From sequence record NZ_CP041325.1: DNA of 64,000 nucleotides. One strand, 5' to 3'. Every line of letters begins with the position of its first letter. The first letter of the stretch is position 1. Positions 57 to 58,813 of this stretch are shown here, one piece after another. Both the position numbers and the translations under genes were made by a program. The notes beneath the pieces are model-generated. The model searched no databases. It worked only from the letters and a program-made list of their open reading frames with translations, and was not told the DNA's origin. This stretch comes from a plasmid.

Positions 57-871
57 TCATTTCACCGTTGCGACCGTGATCTTGGTCCCTGTCGAGGTGA
101 AGATAATGTTGCCCTTCTGGTCGGTTCGATAGACAGCCGCCTTGTACGGCTTGTAGCGGTTGAGTACTTCCGCGGTCGGATGACCATAAGCATTCTTGCC
201 GACACTGATGACGGCGTACTTCGGCTTCACCGCTTTCAGGAAATCCGCGTTGGAGGACGTCTTCGCCCCGTGGTGTCCGACTTTGATGACGTCCGCGAGG
301 AGCGTCTGTTTTGCTTTGACCATGTCTGCTTCAGACGCCTTCTCCGCATCACCCGTGAACAGGAATTTGTTCTTGTTGTACGTCACATGCAGCACCGCGC
401 TCCAGTTATTGAGATCGGTCTTGCCATAGTCGCGCGTCGGTCCGACGAATTTCGCCATCACGGTTTTCAATGGTAGCTTGACGCCGACCTTCGCGGTCTT
501 GATCGTCAGCTTCTCGGCCTTCACAGCTTTCAAAAGTTCGCATAGGCATCCGTCGTGTGCGCCACTTTCGGGGCGTAGACCGATTCCACCTTGTACGCTT
601 TCAGCACTTCATCCAGGCCGCCAAGGTGGTCGGCATCCGGATGTGTGGCAATCATGATCTCGATGTCGTCCACTTTCTGTTTCTTAAGGTAGGCGATGAC
701 CTCGTCGCCCTGTCCCTGGCGTCCGCCGTCGATCAGGACGTCTTCACCGCCCGGCATCTTGATGTAAGTTGCGTCGCCTTGGCCGACGTTGATGAAATGC
801 ACCTTCATCGTCGGTGTGGCAGCGGAGGTGGACGGTACGGACACGAGCCCGGCCAATAGGAACATGGACAT
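57..871 (-). CDS. secreted MBL-fold metallo-hydrolase (lactamase_B/ComEC-like domain), split by one frameshift near 530
   Basis: ORFs 530..871 and 57..533 are contiguous. N-term signal peptide, motifs HPDADHLGG and VGHHGAKTSS typical of MBL fold. Confidence 0.6.
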
Positions 872-1045: not shown

Positions 1046-2297
1046 ATGGAGAGCCGGGAAGGGGGACGCACGATTGCTTGCCTCGACATGCGCAGTTTTA
1101 TGCGAGTTGTGCGGCGGTCGAGGCCGGGATGGATCCGCTGGAAGCGTATATCGCCGTCGTCGGCAACCAGGAGCGCAAGGGCAGCGTTGTGCTTGCGGCC
1201 TCCCGCGGATGAAGCAGGAGTTCGGGGTCCGTACCGGCACCCGGCTGTTTGAAATCCCGGGCGACCCGCGGATCCGGCTCGCCTCGAGCCGAAGATGGGC
1301 TTCTTCCTGAAGGTGTCGATGGCCATCACGGACCTATTGGCGGAGTTTGTGCCGAAGGACTGCATCCACGTCTACAGCGTCGACGAGAGCTTCATCGACT
1401 TCACCCGTGTGGAGGCTTCTGGGGCGGGGCAGAGGCGCTCATTCGCCACATCCAGGACGCGCTTGTCCGCCAATTCGGGCTGCCGTCTGCGGTCGGGGTG
1501 GGGCCGAACATGCTGCTGGCGAAGCTCGCACTCGACCTAGAGGCGAAGAAGAGCGGCTATGCCGAGTGGACGTATACCGACGTGCCGAAGAAGCTGTGGC
1601 CGGTCGCGCCCTTGAGCAAGATGTGGGGCATCGGGTCCCGCACTGAACAGACCTTGAATGGCATGGGCATCTTCTCGGTCGGCGACTTAGCCTGCACGGA
1701 TGTCGCAAAATTGGAAGGTCGCTTCGGCATCATGGGACACCAGCTCTATCAACATGCCAATGGCATCGACCTGTCGGAGCTCGGCGCGCCGCTCATCGAA
1801 GGGCAGGTCAGCTACGGCAAGGGCAGATCCTCTACCGGGACTATACCGAAGTGGAAGACATCCTGACGATCATCCTGGAGATGTGCGAGGACGTCGCGAT
1901 GCGCGCGCGGCAGGCCGGACGGGCGGGGCGCACGGTCCAGCTGGGGGTCGGCTACAGCAAGACAGCGTTCGGCGGCGGCTTCTCCCGCTCGCGTTCAATC
2001 GAGGAGGCGACGAACGAGACGCTGGCGCTCTACCGGGTCTGCCAGGAACTGTTCCGGGAACATTACCTCGGCAAACCGGTCCGCCAGATTTCGCTGTCCC
2101 TCAGCAACCTGGAGGAAGAGTCATCGATGCAGCTGAGCCTGTTCGAGGCCCAGAAATGGGAGAACCGCAAGCTCGGGGCGGCGATGGACCAGATCCGGAA
2201 CCGGTACGGCTATTCGGCGATCTACCGGGCGGTGTCCGGGACCGAAGCTGGAACGGCCATTGCCCGGACACGCTTGATTGGCGGGCATCAGAAATAA
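1046..2297 (+). pseudogene. Y-family DNA polymerase (DinB/Pol IV, UvrX/YqjW-like), at least 5 frameshifts
   Basis: Fragments IACLDMRSF..., MKQEFGVRTGTRLFEIPGDPRI, MAITDLLAEFVPKDCIHVYSVDESFIDFT, GVGPNMLLAKLALDLEAKK, GIGSRTEQTLNGMGIFSVGDL. These are spread over three frames. RBS before ATG 1046. Confidence 0.7.
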
Positions 2298-2591: not shown

Positions 2592-2873
2592 ATGGATTAC
2601 GAATTGGAATTACCGGAAGAGTTTGAAGGAATGGAATTGCTGCAGACGTTAATCAGTCCAGCAAAGTCAGATACGGGAATTATGATTCTTGGTGAGAATT
2701 ATGCGGAGGGAGTTGAACGGCCGACTGTGCGGATTTACCTAATCAGTATCGGAAAAGATGAATGGAATATCGAAGGAGAACTTCAGGCGTTTACATTTCC
2801 AAGTTTCGGCAGCGCGAAGCGGTTTGTCGAGGATTTGCCAAGTATGTCGGCCATCGATTTGTTGTGCTTATGA
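2592..2873 (+). CDS. hypothetical acidic protein (93 aa)
   Basis: Intact ORF, RBS AAAGGAGAG 6 nt upstream. No recognisable domain. Confidence 0.4.
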   Translation: MDYELELPEEFEGMELLQTLISPAKSDTGIMILGENYAEGVERPTVRIYLISIGKDEWNIEGELQAFTFPSFGSAKRFVEDLPSMSAIDLLCL

Positions 2874-3049
2874 ACGGGCATCAAGCTACCCATCCTAGTA
2901 AACAGATTATGCAATGAAATGATATATAATGGTGCTCTTTCGACGATATTCTTATGTCTCCGTAAGAGATTACCTTCTGAAGGTTCTGAAGGTAATGATA
3001 AACTGAAATACCGCACCTGCAAGGTAACAAGGCAAAGAATTCCCGGCTA

Positions 3050-3402
3050 TTTGTGGTCCAAGCTGCTCGAAGTCCGGGAAAAGCAGGCCATCCATCGGCT
3101 CTTGAAAAGGATGCCCACTTACAAGAACTTCAATTGTTCATCAGCGAGTTCTAGCAGCTCATGCGACTACAGCGAGAATGCCTGCATTGAATACGAAGAA
3201 AAAGCGGAATCAAGGAACTGAAGCAATTTGGACGCTACTTGCAATCAGATTGGCAAGCTGTTGAAAAATTCCCTGATTCATCGCTGGAGCAATGGTTTGG
3301 TAGAAGGTCATGTAAATCGCATTAAAGTGATCAAATGGTAAAGGTATGGCCGGGCTAACTTTAATCTGCTTCGCCTTAAAATTTTATACCGTTCCAATTA
3401 AT
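3050..3402 (+). mobile_element. ISL3-family transposase C-terminal remnant (frameshifted, truncated)
   Basis: Reading frames give ...WSNGLVEGHVNRIKVIK... and the terminal ...GRANFNLLRLKILYRSN*, the characteristic ISL3 transposase C-terminus. No intact N-terminal part. Sits exactly at the GC drop. Confidence 0.6.
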
Positions 3403-3812
3403 ACTTTCCTAAAAACAAGCTAACCATTCACCAGCTGCCGACAATCATCTTCACCAAATTGCGGAAGAACCAATAATAAACCGGTGTTAACAAATATTAT
3501 TTTCAATTTTAAAAATAAGTTTAATACATCGAGTGCTATATATTTTAGGAACCTAAACAACCGTGTTTAAGTTCCTTTTTGCTGTTATTTAGCATTTGGT
3601 TATAGAAATTAGAAATAATAATTACCTTCTTTGATCTATCGAATGGTGCAAATTCACTTTAAATAATTTTCTTAATTTTTTCTCAAAACCTCAAAAATAA
3701 ATCTCTTTTCGATGTGAATACTTGTATAATTTAGGTAATAATAAATATTTTAAAGACTCATAAATTAGATGAATTAATTTAATTAAAATACTATTAAATA
3801 TATAGGGGTTAA

Positions 3813-5410
3813 TGATGGAGAGCATAAGAATAAGAAATTTAAGAAGTTTAAAAGACACAGGGAGGTTGAACTCAAACCGTTAACTTTATTAGTGGGGAAA
3901 AATAGCTCAGGAAAAGCACCTTTTAAGAACCTTCCCATTATTCAAGCAAACTATAGAAACTAAAACTAATGAACCGATTCTTTGGTATAGCAGTAGATAC
4001 GTTGATTTTGGAAGTTTTCATGAAAGTCTTAATAAGATAACAGCTAAAGAAGAGGAGGAAAAGAAAAATATTAGTTTTGATTTCAAATTTAGTATCCCAA
4101 GTTCAGTTGTACAAATGGGAACTGTTGATATATTAAGCTACTATTCTTTAAGACCAAGTAGAATGAGTAGAATTTATAATTATAATTACAGCAATAGTAA
4201 CCGTAAAACACCATTTAAAATAAGCATTGAAACGAATCAAAAGTCATTATCTAAATTTACTATTTCTATAGAAGATCATTTACTTGAAATGACTTTAAAA
4301 GAAGATGAAAAATTTAGTCAAGTAGGACTTAAAATAAACGGAGTACCTATTTCAGAAACTTCTAGTTTAGTAGCTCGATACGCTAAAGATTACTCGCAGT
4401 TATTACCTTTAATCTTTAGTGACAAAAGTAATTCTTCTGAAAATAATTATTTTAGAGATGAGTTATTTAAAATTTTTCAAAGCTTGGCTTATACTTCTAC
4501 GAGAAGAAATACGATTTCAGAGTTTATTGAGGACATAAAGTTTGGTGATAAATCTGAAATTATTAATAATAAAAAGTCAAGATACTACAGCTAATGTTCT
4601 ATTAGAAAATTTAAAAGCATTAGAGTCCGACAATGAGGTAATGCAACAAATTATAATAAATTACATAGGTATGAATATAAATCCTATAATAACAATGTGT
4701 AATAATTATATAGAACAGTATTTCTCTTCAATTAATTACATCGCTCCTATTAGAGCGAGTGCCGAAAGGTATTACAGAATTCAAGGTCTTTCTGTAGATG
4801 ATATCGATCCACAGGGCGAGAATATACCAATGATTTTCAATAATATGAGTGATATTGAAAAGAAAATTATAACCATTGGTTATTTGGTAATTTTGACTTC
4901 AAATATCAGCAAGCCCTACGGAAGGACATTCATCAATAAGAATAAAATATAGTAATGGAGAAGAGGTTAACTTAGCAGATACAGGCTTCGGGTATTCTCA
5001 GATTCTCCCAATTACTTTAGTTCTATGGCAGACTTCAAAACAAGAACGAAAAGACATATTTGCATATAGTGGATTATATAAAGCTGATTACAATTTTTTA
5101 ATTTAGTGATTGAGCAGCCTGAACTACATTTGCATCCAGCTATTCAGGCTAAATTAATCGATGCATTTATAAAGATAATTATGCTATGTAAAGAAAAGAG
5201 TATTGATATTAAAATTATTATCGAAACACATAGTGAAACAATGATTAATAGAATTGGATATATAATAGCAAAAATATAGAGGAATTTACCGAGGATTTAG
5301 TTAAGGTAATTATTTTTGAAAATGATGAGGTCTTTGATACTAAATTAAATGTAAGTACATATTCGGAAAACGGGTATCTAAAAAATGGCCTTTAGGTTTT
5401 TGAGCCGGAG
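3813..5410 (+). pseudogene. ABC-type AAA ATPase (AAA_15/AAA_21 + DUF3696), PARIS AriA-like, many frameshifts
   Basis: N-term IRIRNLRSLKDTG...LTLLVGKNSSGKS (Walker A). Then GFGYSQILPITLVLWQ, EQPELHLHPAIQAKLIDAF, IIIETHSETMINRIG. C-terminal NWPLGF matches DUF3696. At least 6 frame changes. Confidence 0.6.
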
Positions 5411-5415
5411 AATTT

Positions 5416-6420
5416 AATGTTATTAAAGATTGATAGTTCATTAGTTGATTATTTAAAAGATAATTCCTCAAAGCCCAATTTAATAAATAACGAAGTTCAG
5501 GCTTTAAATAATCTCTCTATAGCACACAGGGACAAAAACATATTTTATTTGGATCTTTAGATGTAGTAGAATTTTTAAAAGATTTTAAACCCTTAGATGA
5601 TACTGCGCTAGGAATTTTAGCAATTTATTTAAAAGTTTACTTTCATGGGAATATATGAAGAAATGTTTGATAATCAAATATTAATTAAAAGTAGAGAACA
5701 TAAGTTTTTAAAGAAGTTTGTTAAAGAGAAAGTAATTTGAAATTCCTATAACTGATTTTTAGATATAGAGAGTATTAGTAGAACTGCACTAATTGGAGAA
5801 GACAGTACTGACTGTGAATTTTATGAAGGATTAGCAAAACAGTATATTACAGAAAATTATGGGATTTCTGCTATTAATTTAAACTTTCACCATGTGAATG
5901 GAGGGGAGTAAATACTTGGAAATCCTTGCGTTATTACAGTGAAAATAAAAAATCTCACTTACTATAACTGATAGTGATAAGCGCTACCCAACTGGTAACG
6001 TAGGAGAGACTTTAAGAAAATTGAGGACTGAATATAATAAACATAAAAATAATACGATAACAGATTTAGTGGAGTTAAAAGTAAGAGAAAAAGAAAATTT
6101 AATTCCTCCTTCAGTTTATTTGTATTGCTGCAACAGTTCTGATAAAAGTAGATTGAAAACTTCATGTTATTAGAGGATTCTAATAAGCATTCCGAAAAAT
6201 TATTTTATTTAGATTATAAAGAAGGGTTAAACGTTAAGAGCTATAAACGAGATTCTCAATTGCAAGGATATATAGAAGAAATGGTGAAAGATTTTCCGCA
6301 CTTAGCCACTTGTAGTTTGGAAGATATAGATTCCTTATCTGACGATTATCGTATTATTGAAGGTATAAGTATGAATGTTTCAGATTATTTTAGTGTAGGA
6401 GTTTTTACGAAGGTTTAGAA
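5416..6420 (+). pseudogene. candidate DUF4435/TOPRIM-like partner (AriB-like), multiple frameshifts
   Basis: Starts 6 nt after the ATPase. Fragment ALIGEDSTDCEFYEGLAKQYI resembles the OLD/DUF4435 TOPRIM glutamate motif. Downstream pieces carry acidic DxD-like segments. Assignment is tentative. Confidence 0.35.
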
Positions 6421-6441
6421 AAAGAATTAGAAGATAAATTA

Positions 6442-6660
6442 ATGATAGAAAAAATACCAGCAGAAGTTATAGATGATTTGCGTAATAGTATAGACAAAAA
6501 AATAAAATGTTTAGACATATGCCAGAAAGCTTTCAAGTTCATTTGGAGGAAATTTGCAAAAAGCTTATTGATTGGGGATGTGCTAATAGTTCTTTTATTG
6601 CGACCTAAATACTTTGAAAAGCATTTAAAAATATTTATGAAAGTATTACTTAAATTGTAA
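6442..6660 (+). CDS. hypothetical small protein (72 aa), possibly a 3' extension of the preceding frameshifted gene
   Basis: ORF only. Confidence 0.2.
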   Translation: MIEKIPAEVIDDLRNSIDKKIKCLDICQKAFKFIWRKFAKSLLIGDVLIVLLLRPKYFEKHLKIFMKVLLKL

Positions 6661-6896
6661 ATTGATTTGTCAAGTGTATAGTGATTACGTGAATTTTTTC
6701 ATAAAAGATGGTTTATAAGAGGCCGAAAAGAAGATTCCAATTTCTTCTCGGCTACTTCTAATTTAGTCTCAAAATTTATATCAAAAGCACTCTATTATAA
6801 TATTGCTTAAGAATGATCCAGCTAAGAAAAGGAAGGACATCGATTCTTATAACGAATCTAATACAGTATCTATATTTAAGTGTTTATACAATAAAG

Positions 6897-9800
6897 TTAT
6901 TTTTGCTTAGTCTCGGCTGCGTACTTACTCGAACGAACCCTGGAATCGCAAGCTCGTCCAACTTTATCGTAAAGTATGGTGTGAGTTACTTTATCTATGA
7001 TTTGCTGTGAAATTTCTCGATCGAAATCTGCTATCTCTGGTAATATAGCATTAATATTTGCTAAATCTATTTCTTCAAAGTTCGATATTGCTTCAGCAAT
7101 TATAGTTGATTTCTTGAGTAAAAATAATCTCAATGAATTGGGGTCTTCATTTATTAAGTGGAAAATAAGAATATGCAGAGCTTGCCATTCTAATCGATCT
7201 TTTGAGTAAGAATCTCTATGCATAGGAATATCAAAATCATTTTCTATATAATACTTAACTAGCGAAGGAGAAAAAGCGAACTGATAAAGGTTTATTTTCT
7301 CAAATTTCTCTTTATTACTGTAAAGAAAATTATCAATTATTCGAACGTGCTTTTATCAAGATACAAAAGAGGAACTCAAGTATTTCACTATGAAAGCTCG
7401 CCCAAACATTATGCTCATCAAATTTAGTTTTTATTCGGGTTAAATCTATAGCTTTAATAAGCTCAGAGTATTTACCTGAATCAAACTTTCTCAGAATCTT
7501 ATAGAAACTAGATAAGTTGTGCCAACTGCGAAAGGGAACTGTTACTAATTCTTCAGCCAATTGCTTGGGTTCAATAAAACTAATGATTTTTTCACCAATG
7601 ACTCTTTGATCTTTTTAATATAATCTCTTTTTTCGCTTAAAGAGTTGAATCCCATTACTATTGCTAAAAATTTGAAATCTAGCATATGCCAAGCGTTAAT
7701 TGAATGTTGTTTAAATGCATTGCGGAAATTGTCAGACATCACGTGAAATAATTTAATGCCATAAAGTCTGTCGTAGTTAAAAATGTTCCCAATGAAATCA
7801 ACTAAGTCTTCGAAATCTAACTGGTTATTTTCCAATAAAAGTAGTTCTGTTTCAATCTGGTTTTGTCTAAAAGCTTGAAAAATTCCTTTGCTCTTTCAAT
7901 TGATAAAAGAAGACCTAACCTAGAAATAAAATAACTCCAGTGATATAAATCTTCTTTCTTTAAATTAGAAAATCTATTAGCAATTTCAGTTATATTTAAG
8001 TTGTTACCAAAATCTTTTGCTTTAATTCTATCCGAATTATACATATCATTTATTATAGTGCCCAATGAATAAGCCGTTATACTATTTACATTTTCAATTT
8101 CTTTATGAATTGTTGAAGAAAAATGATATATATCAAAATACTCGGTTTTACTAAACTTTGTAAAAGTATTGGCGAAGTATAAAGCATGAGTAGTGAGAGT
8201 TTTTCTTCTGACGACAAGCTTTCTTCAATGATATGGTAAACTTCGTCTTTCGAAATAATATAAGGCATTCTAAAATGCAGTTCACTAGTGAAAATTGTAT
8301 TCATAAACCATACTTTTCCTAAAAGCGGATTATTTAGAGATATCATTTCATTGTGTACTATTTGCTCATATTTTTTCTATTTTCTGTGTCATTATCGAAT
8401 ATGAACTTCAATTGTCTTTTAGCTGCTTCATAGTGAATCATTCTAAGGAAGAAACCATCAATTAACCTTTTCTTTCGTAGTGCTTTTAAATTTTTATTTA
8501 GCCATTCTTCATCTTCAGAAAAGTATTCTTTTACGTTCTGTATTAACCAATTTTCATTTACTGTATTATCTTTGGTTATTATCTGTTTTAGAGCCAGTAA
8601 AAAATTAATCTTTGTGAGTTGTCTAGATCTTTTGATTTAAAGTAGTTATCTTTAGTAGTTTTCCACCCGCCTCTAATTACATAATTAAAGGTCCAAAGAT
8701 TGTCCTCTTTCGAGGCGGCATCTATTCTTTGATCGAACGATTCTTGCAGAAAGTAATTTCCTAAGTCTCCATCTATTTTTGAAATAATATGTGAAACTGT
8801 TTTTCATTTTTCTGTAAAATTCACTAATGCAAGCGATATTCTCATTATTAGAAATTGAAACTGTAGCGGAATCAACTTCTATATCTTCAGTAACTGTCAA
8901 AATGATCTTTTGATAATTACTGCTTTTTCTTGTAAGATTTGCAAAATCGAACTGGGTAGAATATGTCCATCATCAATGATATATATTGCTTTAGGATTGC
9001 TGGGTAAAGAAAAATTATCGATATCTGTAAAATCATTGGTTTTGAAACGTAAAACTTCATATCCATGTTTTAAAAATGAAAAGCGATTTGGTAACAAGAA
9101 ATGGATTTACCAGATCCGGTTTTCCTTGAAGAATAACAAAGTTATTCAACTCTAAAACTTTAATAGCTTTTGAACTTGGGGCATTTCGGGACAAACGCTC
9201 ACGTCTTGAGGGGTAAGTTTGTACCCTAAAACGGCTCTTCCAATACTATCATTTTGATTTTTAAAATTTAAGTACTCCCATTTATTATAATTATTCTCGT
9301 CTATCAAATTTTCAACTAATTCCTCAAAAATTCCGACGCCGATAAATTAATCACTCTTTCATCAGTTGAAAATGGGGAAACTCTATAGACTTTCCATTTA
9401 TCTTCTAAAGGCGAAATCAATTCTTCTACAATTTTGCATCGCTTTCTGAATAGCCAACGATAACTAGAGTTCTAGGTCTTTCCATTGCTAGTAGATTAAT
9501 ATGTTTTGTTCTTCGTCACTTATATTTCCTGGAGAGTTTGGAAGTACCCACTCAGAATTTAAATTTAAGACATCTCCGTGTGGTTTGATCAAATTTATTT
9601 TACTGTCGTTTATTCGGGTACCATATAATTCAGACCATGACATTTCTAATAAGCTATCCCAATTAAAAGAGACAATTAGCTCAAAAAATTTTCATGAACT
9701 AATTTAGCTATATTATTATGTATACGAGGGGCAACGGTTATTTTACTGTTAACCTTGCTAAACTTGCTTTTAAATAAACTTACCGCATCTTCATTCTGTT

Positions 9801-10042
9801 CAATATATGAAAACGCCCTTTGATTTTACAAAATCTTCTCCTATTCTACTCTTTGTACTTCCAATGCCTTTAAACTTCTGATCGATACTAGGAAAAGAAC
9901 TTACTACCTCCCAAACAATAGGAGCAAGCTGGTTACCTAGTGGCATTCCAGGTTCAAAGGAAACTCCCGCCCCAATAACTACGACAGCATTATTAACTCT
10001 TATTTCATTAATTATTGAGGTTAAATTATTAACAGACTTCAT
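6897..10042 (-). pseudogene. large SIR2-domain protein fused to putative P-loop NTPase / helical C-terminal region (~1050 aa), at least 8 frameshifts
   Basis: N-term VVVIGAGVSFEPGMPLGNQL. Then FNWDSLLE and KPHGDV, the SIR2_2/DUF4917 motifs. Shortly after comes SRKTGSGKS (Walker A-like) and ~45 aa later AIYIIDDGH (Walker B-like). Long alpha-helical C-terminal segments follow on the same strand, in consecutive frames. Confidence 0.55.
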
Positions 10043-10190
10043 CTCACTTGCTCCTTTTTAGTGATACTTTAATTATTCCATATAGGGAAAAATAATAAAA
10101 ACGTTATAAATTAAACTGTTTTATAGGAGTTTCTTCTATTATAAAGGAGTTGCTGTCTCTGCTTCGATTTCTCTCACTAATTTATAAAAA

Positions 10191-10753
10191 CTAGTTTTTA
10201 ACTCCAGTTTCTTGCATGGCTTCAACTGCTGTTAATTCTCCAGATTTCCATTTTCTATAAACCTCTTTAAATTCTTCTGAAACAAGAACAGGAGTCCTGC
10301 CAAACTGAATGCCGTTTTTCAACGCTAAGTCGATTCCTTCGCGTTGCCGTTTTCGTATGCGTTCCCGTTCTTCTTCTGCCATCCAGGAAAGAATCTGCAA
10401 AACCAAATCTGCAATGAATGTTCCCATACTATCTTTATACTGCGTCGTATCGAGTAACGGCATATCCAGCACCACGATATCCGCTTCGATTTTTTCGTCA
10501 GGTCATTCCATTCCTGGAGGATCTCTTCTTTGTTCCGGCCAAACCGATCCAGCGAGTGGATATATAAAATGTCGCCTTTCCGGATAATCCGTTTGAGCAG
10601 CTGATAGTTCGCTCGCTCGAAATTCTTACCACTTTGCTTGTCCAAATAAATATCCCGTTCAGTGATGCCCATTTTTCTCATTGCTTCCAATTGACGGCCT
10701 TCGTTTTGATCTTTGCTGCTGACACGTATGTAGCCAAATTTGCGATGTTCCAT
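10191..10753 (-). CDS. serine recombinase (Tn3-family resolvase/invertase), one frameshift in T6 run near 10495
   Basis: MEHRKFGYIRVSSKDQNEGRQLEAM...DRFGRN. C-terminal HTH ...ELTAVEAMQETGVKN. Confidence 0.8.
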
Positions 10754-10796
10754 AATTCACCTCGAAAACGATTGTTTCCTCTCATTATACCTGAAA

Positions 10797-10919
10797 AGCG
10801 TTCGTAAAAGTGTCTTAATTTCGCGAACGTTCGTAAAGTCATTTGACACGTTTACGAACGCTGTTTTAGCCGTTTAGCCCTTTTCAAAGCGTTCGTAAAA
10901 GTGTACTTTTACGAACGCT
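10797..10919. promoter_or_regulatory. res site: three subsites of the CGTTCGTAAA family including perfect palindrome CGTTCGTAAAAGT-GT-ACTTTTACGAACG
   Basis: Directly upstream of the resolvase gene. Repeated half-sites at 10797, 10826, 10850 and 10888-10919. Confidence 0.7.
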
Positions 10920-10935
10920 TTAAAAGTATAGTGGC

Positions 10936-11124
10936 ATGTATAAAAAGGGAATAAAGGAGAATTCGGCGAATTACCTGTTTAAGGAAATAAACCAATTGTT
11001 AAAGAAGACAACTAGGGGCGAGGGAGTGATTCGTTTTATTCGATATGAAGAGGATCAAATGTATTTAGAATTCACAGAAATAGAACCGGCTGTAAGTTTA
11101 ACGGAATTTGTAAAATATCTATAA
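10936..11124 (+). CDS. hypothetical small protein (62 aa)
   Basis: ORF only. Confidence 0.25.
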   Translation: MYKKGIKENSANYLFKEINQLLKKTTRGEGVIRFIRYEEDQMYLEFTEIEPAVSLTEFVKYL

Positions 11125-11261
11125 GATGAAGAAATCACAAGACGAAAGGATGCCTTGGCGATGGCTTTCAAAAGCAAAAACAGAAAGAAATCCAGGCAGT
11201 CTTCCGAACTTTGCTCGCCTGAAATCATGAATTGAAAAATTTGCCGAAAGGATGTGATGAT

Positions 11262-11653
11262 ATGACGATTAACGTATTTATCAGCTATGACTACACCAGC
11301 GATAAAGAGTATGCATCCTTATTAAAAGCTTGGGCTGAAAACGATGCCGAACATTTTAAGAACATTAATTTTATTGATGGTTCTAGCGATTTTCAAGAGA
11401 ATCTACTAAAGTGAACGCCTTCAAAAATTCAATTTCAAGAAGAATGAATGCGTGTGATAAAATACTTGTTTTAGTTGGAAAAGAAACCTACAAAAGTGAT
11501 TGGTGTAAATGGGAGATCAAGAAAGCTGAAGAACTTGAGCTTGATTTTGCAGCAGTTAACATTGAACATGCAAATGCATCTCCCATCAGCTTGTACGGAA
11601 AAGGAGTAAAAGGGCGAGAAGTTTTACTGAAGCAGCCATTGAAAGCGTCTTAA
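11262..11653 (+). CDS. TIR-like DUF1863 protein (Thoeris ThsB-like), one frameshift at ~11412
   Basis: MTINVFISYDYTSDKEY... and ...CDKILVLVGKETYKSDWCKWEIKKAEEL. The SxWvxWEI motif is typical of DUF1863. RBS GAAAGGA. Confidence 0.6.
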
Positions 11654-11823
11654 CGTAAGATCAAATCAACATGTGGATGTTTATAAGCTTTTACCTTTTC
11701 GAGGGTTTAACTTAAGCTAGGCAGTTTCTTTTGTAGTTAGAATTTTAATAGGTTTACATATCTTCACTTATAGGAAGCAGCAACCTAAATTAATCTTCAA
11801 TTGGCGTTGCTACAGTTACATGT

Positions 11824-11860
11824 AAAACAGACAGCCGACTTGCTCAGGCTGTCTGTTTTA
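11824..11860. terminator. bidirectional rho-independent terminator
   Basis: AAAACAGACAGCC-loop-GGCTGTCTGTTTTA. Confidence 0.6.
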
Positions 11861-12143
11861 ACTCTAGAGATAGACTTTGTGGCTCAGTTTTAATGATTAC
11901 TGGACAAACTGCTTACCGATTCGCACCTATAATAATGAAGTGTATTGAAAATAATAGTTAATTATTTAAAAATTTAATTATTTAATAGAAAAAGTTTTAT
12001 TTCTTGCTATACTAAAAGCTAAAAGAAGAGATACATGGGGCAGAGAAACGGGGAGTGAGAATGCTTTTGAAATCAAAACACTTTAAAGAAATTATTAATC
12101 TACAAGTATTTTTAATACATCCTTTTCAAGGGAGTGAAGAAGT

Positions 12144-12281
12144 ATGGAGAACTTTTTAATTCTATTTTCTCCTTACCTCATTGGCTTAGCGCTATGCTTA
12201 GGAATCAGCTCGCTTATCGCAAGTATTTTAGAAAATAAGAAAAACACTAATTCAAGTAGAAAGAGGATATCATTATAAACT
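12144..12281 (+). CDS. small membrane peptide (45 aa)
   Basis: Strong RBS AAGGGAGTG. Hydrophobic core LILFSPYLIGLALCLGISSLIASIL. Confidence 0.3.
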
Positions 12282-12392
12282 ACCTCTTTGATAAGAAGAA
12301 CCGCGGAGAGAACGGGCAAACAATCATTAACGGAAATATTGGTTGAGTTGTATATTTGTTTGTCCGACTATCGCCTTGTGCTTTTGATCCGT

Positions 12393-12798
12393 TTATTTAC
12401 TCACTAACTCTTCAATGTATTCATAAGCAATTGCTTCATCTTCTGACTTGTAGAAAAACCCCTTGTACGTCATTGTATCCCTTGAATTGATGGTGAGGTC
12501 CTGGATTACTTCGCCTTTCTCGTCGAAAAAGACGGCGCGATAACTAAATGCGATATCCCCGATTGAGGGTGCCCTTTTGAAAAATGGTTTTGTTCAGATT
12601 GCTGACCAGATGATTAATCTCGCTTTCTTCGGTAATCTCCAGTAATTTTATTGAGTTCTCATCTGAAACAGCTATTTTGGAAACCTTTGCTGGCTCGATG
12701 CTTACAACTTTATGAGGGGCATAGGACCACGCAAAAGCCAACAGCAATAAGAATGGAACCGCTAGTACAACCCATTTGATCCACTTTCTTTTATTCAT
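12393..12798 (-). CDS. hypothetical membrane-anchored protein, one frameshift
   Basis: RBS AAGGAGG. N-term TM MNKRKWIKWVVLAVPFLLLLAFAW. Confidence 0.4.
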
Positions 12799-58699: not shown

Positions 58700-58783
58700 A
58701 CATCTACACTTCAATACTTTCTTTCTATATATAAAATTTCAAGTTACTAAAACTAGATTTAAAATAGTCGTTTATTAAAATAA

Positions 58784-58813
58784 AGCGTTCGTAAAAGTAC
58801 ACTTTTACGAACG
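58784..58813. promoter_or_regulatory. res-like palindrome CGTTCGTAAAAGT-AC-ACTTTTACGAACG (inverted copy of the res core at 10888-10919)
   Basis: Arms identical to the resolvase-adjacent site. Central dinucleotide AC vs GT. Confidence 0.6.

Follow-up and report, generated by a model that had tools for sequence, protein, structure and literature searches.

An AT-rich, frame-broken tract of a Planococcus glaciei plasmid as a probable mis-sequenced patchwork of intact, separately mobile candidate immune modules

Results

The tract of low guanine-plus-cytosine (GC) content that follows an ISL3 transposase remnant in plasmid record NZ_CP041325.1 encodes an ATP-binding cassette (ABC) ATPase, a Toprim-like partner protein and, convergent with this pair, a large SIR2-NTPase; it was analysed within a stretch of 64,000 nucleotides, called the window below. 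With a probability of about 0.8, the tract is made up, in patchwork fashion, of candidate immune modules that are intact and separately mobile, on a Planococcus glaciei plasmid that has been mis-sequenced, and a mechanism is proposed for the modules. This reading is built on gene models, domain folds, motifs, the mutual independence of the modules, intact identical copies and the pattern of errors, from which anti-phage function, complex formation by the pair, substrates and triggers would follow by analogy. A low-GC cluster of immune-type genes between mobile-element relics had been foreseen in the original prediction and is indeed present; the further idea of a single island is abandoned, since some relatives have the pair but lack the SIR2-STAND gene and others show the opposite. 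What gave the locus its odd look was its seeming decay, which is artefactual, and the locus is mostly ordinary. It overturns no current ideas, and its sequences already have public entries under the names "hypothetical protein" or "AAA family ATPase". The ABC-ATPase/Toprim pair is a variant of a known theme that is catalogued at most as a PADLOC candidate, and the large gene is related, at some distance, to the known SIR2-STAND/Avs5 kind. Most useful as a lead is a widespread two-gene cassette lacking the sensor of the Menshen system. The features are collected in Table 1.

Table 1 Features located in and around the low-GC tract (window coordinates; aa, amino acids).
Feature	Position	Strand	Basis and remarks
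Metallo-beta-lactamase-fold gene	57-871	-	split in two
Y-family (IMS) DNA polymerase gene	1046-2294	+	62% GC; 5 single-base frameshifts
Intact 93-aa open reading frame	2592-2873	+	good ribosome-binding site; no Pfam match
ISL3-family transposase C-terminal remnant and putative element terminal sequence	2990..3472	+	translation, Pfam
Homology block of the ATPase + Toprim cassette, including upstream region	3698..6620	+	blastn
NsnB-type (OLD-ABC, AAA_15) ABC ATPase, 538 aa frame-corrected	3815..5417	+	Pfam, PADLOC, alignment to P0347 (QKX52785.1)
Candidate effector, 400 aa frame-corrected	5417..6608	+	start overlaps ATPase stop (TAATG)
Resolvase + SIR2-STAND homology block	6704..10921	-	90.5% nucleotide identity to L001 over 4.2 kb
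Imperfect GC-containing hairpin, convergent intergenic region, within the resolvase/STAND block	6722..6752	.	read from sequence
SIR2-nSTAND3 NTPase, 1071 aa frame-corrected	10042..6847	-	matches intact P0351 (QKX52890.1)
Small serine recombinase (resolvase), ~205 aa	10139..10753	-	Pfam Resolvase 4e-26; 2 indels
res-like array, four half-sites AGCGTTCGTAAAAGTGT	10783..10933	.	inverted pairs spaced 30 nt and 2 nt; repeat search
ThsB-like TIR-domain protein, ~130 aa, one frameshift	11262..11653	+	Pfam ThsB_TIR 5.5e-19, 68.9 bits (cut-off 21.2), frame-joined translation

Intact genes behind the frame changes

Every gene of the tract is frame-changed in the given sequence, as had been noted beforehand. 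The ATPase gene contains 10 frame changes, the partner gene 10 and the SIR2-NTPase gene 18, giving a total of 38, all of them single-base insertions or deletions (indels), and the open reading frames (ORFs) listed by program for the low-GC region are all fragments, the longest of 159 aa. The three genes were rebuilt by hand from the six reading frames and then subjected to homologue searches, which provided intact relatives for all three. A further P. glaciei plasmid record, of 157,805 bp and with HF394 locus tags, encodes intact versions of the proteins (538, 400 and 1071 aa), and frameshift-aware alignment to the window gave 523 of 526 identical residues for the ATPase (P0347), 389 of 389 for the partner (P0350) and 1051 of 1051 for the SIR2-NTPase (P0351), with no in-frame stop codon. 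The window ORF at 4115-4594 is identical to QDY46925.1 (FK545_20130) of a 157,579-bp P. glaciei plasmid record, from which the window thus derives. Comparison of the resolvase/STAND region with that of Planococcus sp. S3-L1 (locus L001) revealed that the coding indels are, almost without exception, 1-nt deletions in A/T runs of 4-7, and runs of six or more A (A6-A7) are rarer in the window than in the homologous L001 segment. The same lesions occur in the flanks, in the GC-rich polymerase gene as well as in the resolvase gene, and those of the polymerase and metallo-beta-lactamase-fold genes indicate that indel errors run across the whole window.

Thirty-eight indels without substitutions, their spread over the whole window and the bias toward homopolymer deletion together constitute a signature of error rather than decay, and the frame changes are thus read as homopolymer indel errors of sequencing, not as mutations; the plasmid record is assembled from error-prone reads. 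The original prediction had left the choice between a decaying and a badly sequenced island; the latter is upheld by the copies in another P. glaciei record, which are intact and identical outside the indels, and the former is discarded. Intact homologues of both the AriA/AriB-like pair and the SIR2 gene, the lack of which had been named beforehand as part of the damaging outcome, were found, and by that standard the original observation survives. That the genes are pseudogenes in true decay, their frameshifts being mutations present in the plasmid, is scarcely credible: this would account for 38 frame changes within 6 kb of coding sequence and for the truncated products of these genes (239, 335 and 159 aa) that the GenBank record also lists, but no substitution or nonsense codon separates the window from the intact copies of the partner and the SIR2-NTPase in the sister record, the lesions are almost all 1-nt homopolymer deletions, unrelated flanking genes have a similar lesion rate, and two copies in the same record are broken at different sites (P0080, 534 aa, versus the window copy).

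Each of the three proteins is listed twice in both P. glaciei records (157,579 and 157,805 bp), about 103 accession numbers apart, and within these records the frame breaks of the duplicate copies do not coincide; a replicon of ~79 kb may have been assembled as a head-to-tail dimer, or the plasmid may contain a real large duplication. The practical lesson is one of caution: it is homopolymer errors in the long-read assembly of a plasmid that make the island seem to be dying, and the fragmentary "hypothetical proteins" that the deposited record gives for this region are likewise artefacts.

Two modules side by side

The tract contains two homology blocks separated by a gap of 84 bp (6620-6704). 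The left block, with a GC content of 28.3%, is 76-79% identical by blastn to the loci of Planococcus sp. 4-30 (L002) and of two metagenomes (L003 and L004) over exactly its span, and the right block is shared with L001, which has the resolvase and STAND genes without the ATPase pair. Conversely, the STAND gene is missing from L002-L006 and the later loci, all of which have the pair; in L002 the pair is accompanied by a similar resolvase, with different DNA between them. This distribution indicates that two separately mobile modules have come to lie side by side. A joint system composed of the pair and the SIR2-STAND gene was considered and rejected because the modules occur independently. With the ThsB-like TIR gene, a third immune-type gene lies just past the res-like array, and such clustering is the usual picture of defence genes on mobile DNA, not that of a single system.

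A profile search of genome contigs with a 10-sequence alignment yielded 10 loci, one of which (L007) repeats the L002 contig; altogether, the non-redundant loci of the pair amount to 15, namely the window and 14 others. Contigs encoding the proteins P0080, P0073 and P0061 were sought by exact look-up, and none was returned. In every one of them, the ATPase gene is located directly upstream of the partner gene in the same orientation, often overlapping it. The loci span Planococcus, Bacillus cereus prophages, Fictibacillus, Streptococcus mitis, Clostridia and others, and their flanks differ from locus to locus, comprising plasmid backbones, a B. cereus prophage, the pur genes of S. mitis and, in Fictibacillus, dynamin-like GTPase genes. 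In two genomes of S. mitis (L012, 3392-6052; L014, 4131-6810), the cassette separates purK from purB, and in two of B. cereus (L005/L006, 6385-9221) it has a prophage integrase gene on one side and aimR, the gene of the arbitrium receptor, on the other; these are natural examples of its movement as a two-gene unit. A DUF262/ParB gene adjoining the pair was found in none of the 15 loci, as covered by Pfam neighbour tables for L002-L006 and, for the later loci, by ORF maps and scans of ten neighbouring ORFs. Judging from these sequences, the pair is a self-contained, free-standing cassette, common in Bacillota, which travels in one piece into plasmids, into prophages and even into a purine operon. 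Relatives also adjoin AAA ATPase genes on a Bacillus thuringiensis megaplasmid and an Exiguobacterium plasmid, and a distant relative in one phage record is annotated as an OLD-family nuclease.

ATPase of the pair

The frame-corrected ATPase is matched by the Pfam families AAA_15 (3.6e-27) and AAA_21 (2.2e-16) and, among the PADLOC models, by NsnB (1.2e-45, over residues 1-534, that is, full length), PDC-M55A (1.1e-36) and HEC-03B (1.1e-27). It contains the Walker A motif GKNSSGKST, the signature DTGFGYSQ (of GxG type), the Walker B motif VIEQPELHLHP, the H-loop ETHSE and the C-terminal tail WPLGFF, and an alignment of 120 sequences (P0347 and 119 homologues) conserves them as GKNSSGKST, DtGFGySQ (GxG), vIEQPELHLHP, ETHSe and WPxGFF. 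According to Li et al. (PMC12065111), NsnB is peculiar in having a variant Walker B motif, GxG instead of SGG, and a DUF3696 tail; at the level of sequence motifs, the conserved features of the present ATPase correspond to these peculiarities. It had been predicted to be a DUF3696 ABC-ATPase, of which the ABC-ATPase part (AAA_15/AAA_21) stands and the DUF3696 part does not: DUF3696 (PF12476) gave no match to the window protein at E<=10, and its threshold was passed in one homologue alone, P0162 (38% identity; 24.0 bits, cut-off 22). DUF3696 is mentioned in four papers only. Upstream of the gene, TGTATAAT near 3733-3740 resembles an extended -10 motif and would be a putative promoter; a scan for promoters and terminators gave no more matches than in shuffled sequence.

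Partner protein as a candidate effector

The partner belongs to a large family (1,835 clusters at 50% identity, E<=1e-3). It consists of an N-terminal alpha/beta domain (residues ~1-115), an OLD-like Toprim domain (~120-300) and a helical C-terminus ending in WGC. The Toprim residues are E130, D134, GGG164-166, D188-S-D190 and E227-K-E229-N230, among which E130, D134, G166, D188, D190, E229 and N230 are invariant in 84 diverse members of the family. In the predicted secondary structure, E130 follows strand 1 and D188-x-D190 follows strand 3 of a unit of four beta-alpha repeats, which is the Toprim layout. A first AlphaFold2 (AF2) model, made from 10 sequences, had a predicted local distance difference test score (pLDDT) of 65, and its Foldseek search was uninformative; the model made from the 84-member alignment reached a pLDDT of 96.8, and the best structural matches of its catalytic domain are OLD nucleases including Gabija GajA (6p74, 6nk8, 8x5i), ahead of AriB. 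The catalytic part is accordingly predicted by modelling to be an OLD-like Toprim nuclease.

Scans and profile searches gave no Pfam, NCBIfam or PDB-sequence match for the partner. DUF4435 in particular was matched neither by the reconstructed window protein nor by five homologues at E<=10, so that the DUF4435/TOPRIM-like neighbour of the original prediction is retained as Toprim-like and loses its DUF4435 assignment. The PADLOC models of AriB, NsnA and NsnC had no match in the partner or in family members (n=84). The model PDC-M55B matched 46 of the 84 members (E<=1e-3; best, 1.4e-10); the reconstructed window partner was unmatched at E<=0.01, its close homologues were matched weakly (2.4e-3 to 4.4e-3) and more distant ones with E-values down to 3.6e-9.

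SIR2-nSTAND3 NTPase

The expectation of a giant convergent gene for a SIR2-NTPase of ~1050 aa proved right, the rebuilt protein being a fusion of SIR2 and NTPase domains. A SIR2-like domain (residues 1 to ~285) is followed by a P-loop NTPase domain (~290-480) and a C-terminal region of ~600 aa. The segments G24-A-G-x-S28, N128-W-D130, K154-P-H156-G-D158, Walker A G312-x-G-K-S316 and D360-D361 are invariant in 50 homologues; in the window protein, Walker A reads G312-S-G-K-S316 and Walker B is D360-D361. Scans with Pfam, NCBIfam and PADLOC gave few or no matches, and Pfam nSTAND3 was detected in a homologue (P0001, 2.7e-13). When the N-terminal profile was compared with structures, the top matches were all SIR2: 8in8 (1.1e-5), a member of the Sir2 superfamily aligned over ~200 residues that include all of the GAGxS, NxD and HG motifs, the KomC NADase (4.8e-5), Sir2Af2 (6.8e-4) and ThsA (6.3e-3). 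The best PDB match of the full-length profile was EfAvs5 (9JAP; 1.4e-7, over ~110 residues of the NTPase), a SIR2-STAND protein (AVAST type 5) with a short sensor, filament-dependent NADase activity and phage protection, of a type described mainly in Gram-negative phyla (PMC11897194).

The protein resembles Avs5 in being the product of a single gene, in beginning with a SIR2-like domain in which N, D and H are conserved, and in having a C-terminal region after a central P-loop NTPase of STAND type, a possible relative of that of Avs5; it differs from Avs5 in that the NTPase is of the Pfam nSTAND3 type and the hosts are Gram-positive. By analogy with Avs5, it is likely that the C-terminal region would sense a phage protein, upon which the NTPase domain would drive oligomerisation and the SIR2 domain would deplete NAD+ by hydrolysis. 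Homologues of the gene stand alone in varied, mobile-looking contexts. With this gene, Avs5-like NAD-depleting sensors would be extended to Gram-positive plasmids, in a form with a much longer C-terminal region.

Proposed mechanism of the pair

PARIS and Septu have ABC ATPase assemblies to which a nuclease is bound and whose binding or hydrolysis of ATP governs it; the Toprim nuclease domain of Gabija GajA is probably governed by the ATPase domain fused to it. The complex predicted for Menshen, NsnB4-NsnC2, has DUF3696 tails that clamp the N-terminal domain of the effector (PMC12065111). By analogy with these systems, it is most likely that the ATPase oligomer would keep the Toprim nuclease inactive, possibly through its WPxGFF tail and the N-terminal alpha/beta domain of the partner, until a phage-derived cue alters the nucleotide state of the ATPase. 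The nuclease would then be freed or activated to cut nucleic acid (DNA or tRNA), and the infected cell would be sacrificed by abortive infection.

The alternative that survives best, although it is unlikely, is that the modules serve the maintenance of plasmids or prophages, through addiction in the manner of a toxin-antitoxin pair or through exclusion of competitors, and not phage defence. Their location on mobile elements such as plasmids, beside a resolvase gene or a prophage integrase gene, would suit this role, and a nuclease restrained by an ATPase would act much like a toxin-antitoxin pair. The pair is, however, found also in a chromosomal housekeeping context, the pur operon of S. mitis, and the closest characterised relatives of all the components (NsnB, OLD/Gabija, Avs5 and ThsB) are anti-phage (PMC12065111, PMC11897194); moreover, both roles can coexist.

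Several points weigh against reading the tract as a set of immune modules with the mechanisms proposed. The defence role of both modules is that of a candidate, reached by analogy. Walker B of the ATPase reads E-Q and not D-E, and ATP hydrolysis may therefore be slow or absent. The N-terminal alpha/beta domain of the partner is of no assigned class; PDC-M55B matches the closest intact relatives of the partner weakly and over the Toprim core only, and PDC-M55 itself has the standing of a PADLOC candidate, for which no paper was found. As for the SIR2-nSTAND3 protein, the AVAST models of PADLOC gave no match at E<=10, and its ~600-aa C-terminal region is to be set against the "unusual short" sensor of Avs5 (PMC11897194).

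Relation of the pair to known systems

The assignment of the pair to PARIS, made in the original prediction from an AriA/AriB architecture, would imply that AriA senses a phage anti-restriction protein (Ocr-type) and frees AriB, a Toprim nuclease of the DUF4435 family that cleaves host tRNA. The two have in common a split ABC ATPase and Toprim nuclease, a two-gene operon, an association with mobile elements and probably the same logic of a nuclease restrained by an ATPase; the ATPase of the pair is also of the AAA_15/AAA_21 type, as is AriA, which is a feature generic to many systems. Against this assignment, the PADLOC "AriA" models, with the same lengths and match coordinates as Pfam AAA_15 and AAA_21, appear to be these generic profiles; NsnB and PDC-M55A, the best specific matches of the ATPase, have much better scores; DUF4435 (PF14491), which is the criterion for AriB, and the AriB hidden Markov model (HMM) are unmatched in the window partner, five close homologues and 84 family members; OLD nucleases rank above AriB by fold; and the partner is a protein of 400 aa with an extra N-terminal domain. 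The pair is not assigned to PARIS because DUF4435 is not detected, and PARIS membership, to which we give a quite low probability, was rejected.

Menshen (NsnA-NsnB-NsnC) was reportedly described by Millman et al. in 2022. The ATPase of the pair matches NsnB over its full length, and the GxG signature, the variant Walker B motif and the short WPxGFF tail are common to both; the downstream gene, as in NsnC, encodes an N-terminal domain joined to a predicted nuclease. Toprim-fold nucleases form one class of NsnC effectors, for which the families DUF4276 and RloB are named (PMC12065111). In Menshen, the gene for the sensor NsnA (ParB-DUF262) is upstream of the ATPase gene; none was found beside the pair in any of the 15 loci, as far as their neighbours were scanned, and for this reason the pair is not assigned to Menshen. 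In addition, the NsnC HMMs are unmatched, the N-terminus of NsnC is an inactive PIN domain and that of the partner an alpha/beta domain of no assigned class, and the partner Toprim is neither DUF4276 nor RloB since no Pfam family matches it.

It is very improbable, even more so than PARIS, that the pair is a truncated Menshen system that lost nsnA through the ISL3 insertion and is hence non-functional. The best specific match of the ATPase is indeed NsnB, the effectors known as NsnC do combine an N-terminal adaptor with varied nucleases including Toprim-fold ones (PMC12065111), and an insertion sequence remnant lies 340 bp upstream of the ATPase gene. Nevertheless, the same two-gene layout, with no DUF262 neighbour found, recurs in 14 other loci with unrelated flanks (e.g., purK/purB in S. 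mitis), the homology block starts at 3698 and takes in the upstream region, and the PADLOC NsnA and NsnC models are unmatched.

The likeness to PDC-M55 comprises the two-gene arrangement, the PDC-M55A match of the ATPase and the PDC-M55B matches in over half of the sampled partner family. Coverage of the profiles is partial (A, 175-399 of 421; B, 155-260 of 315), and the N-terminal halves differ. With the OLD nucleases and GajA, the partner shares the Toprim active-site layout of E, DxD and an acidic pair, and OLD-ABC (AAA_15) is the type to which the ATPase belongs. In these enzymes, however, ATPase and Toprim are fused, whereas two separate, overlapping genes encode them here (15/15 loci), and the Toprim protein of the pair has extra N- and C-terminal domains; the pair is not a classical OLD nuclease because its ATPase and Toprim are split between two genes.

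From these comparisons we put forward, tentatively and at somewhat less than even odds, that an NsnB-type ATPase and a PIN-less/Toprim partner make up an immune system of two genes that is widespread and sufficient in itself, related to Menshen but sensor-less, and that infection would be detected by the ATPase or by the N- or C-terminal domains of the partner. If so, the system deserves a name and a mechanism of its own instead of being filed under PARIS, Menshen or OLD. The cassette, of which the locus is a clean example, links the transducer ATPase of Menshen to OLD-type nucleases without the sensor of Menshen and, if shown to defend against phage, would help to explain how this class of ATPases senses infection.

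Base composition and borders of the tract

The interval 3400-10050 has a GC content of 29.5%, the lowest among all 6.65-kb windows, compared with 44.2% for the full window; the 6.65-kb windows past 12.4 kb have a mean of 46.2% (standard deviation 3.5, minimum 37.4%). In the composition profile, values of 42-64% fall to 26-33% between ~3.47 kb and 10.2 kb (29% over 3473-10193). The drop had been placed near 3.4 kb at the ISL3 remnant, in agreement with its onset directly after the end of the remnant (3452-3471); the recovery had been placed at 10.05 kb, which does not hold, the GC content returning to 43% only inside the resolvase gene (10194-10753) and falling again to 34.5% over 10926-12400. 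This renewed low GC indicates that the tract extends further to the right than had been supposed. The relics anticipated on both sides are present, the ISL3 transposase remnant on the left and the serine resolvase with its res-like array on the right.

The translation of the ISL3 remnant includes ...WSNGLVEGHVNRIKVIK..YGRANFNLLRLKIL, and the last part of the Pfam DDE_Tnp_ISL3 profile (positions 180-240 of 240) matches it with an E-value of 4.7e-4 and 20.5 bits, short of the cut-off of 23 bits. The 20-mer at 3452-3471 occurs once in the window and would represent the end of the ISL3 element. The intact 93-aa ORF lies between the remnant and the polymerase gene; the latter has 75% DNA identity to the polymerase gene upstream of the homologous ATPase pair in the metagenome loci L003 and L004, suggesting a shared plasmid backbone.

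Resolvase, res-like array and TIR gene

The hairpin between the convergent genes may act as a terminator in both directions; the pattern scan did not call a terminator there. At the other end of the same block, the resolvase gene is located ~100 bp upstream of the STAND gene in the same orientation, and 187 of 202 residues of its product match the L001 resolvase. A megablast search of 3000-10500 against PLSDB matched only the resolvase gene, at 83-88% identity to recombinase genes of Planococcus and Sporosarcina plasmids, which means that the P. glaciei plasmids are not in that collection. Homology with L001 and L002 stops at 10921, within the res-like array, and this fits site-specific recombination having joined different DNA at that point.

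The ThsB-like TIR gene is situated in the low-GC stretch of 10926-12400, outside the limits of the original prediction, and is preceded by an unannotated ORF of ~98 aa at 10936-11232. No ThsA partner is present beside it. Thoeris, which combines a ThsB TIR protein with ThsA (SIR2 or Macro fused to SLOG), was considered and rejected, because the nearby SIR2 domain is fused to a STAND NTPase and not to SLOG, the resolvase gene intervenes, and the SIR2 gene occurs without a TIR gene in L001. A near-identical 35-nt palindrome is found far from the array, at 58779-58813, with no resolvase gene beside it, so that inversion or excision of the intervening ~48 kb is conceivable.

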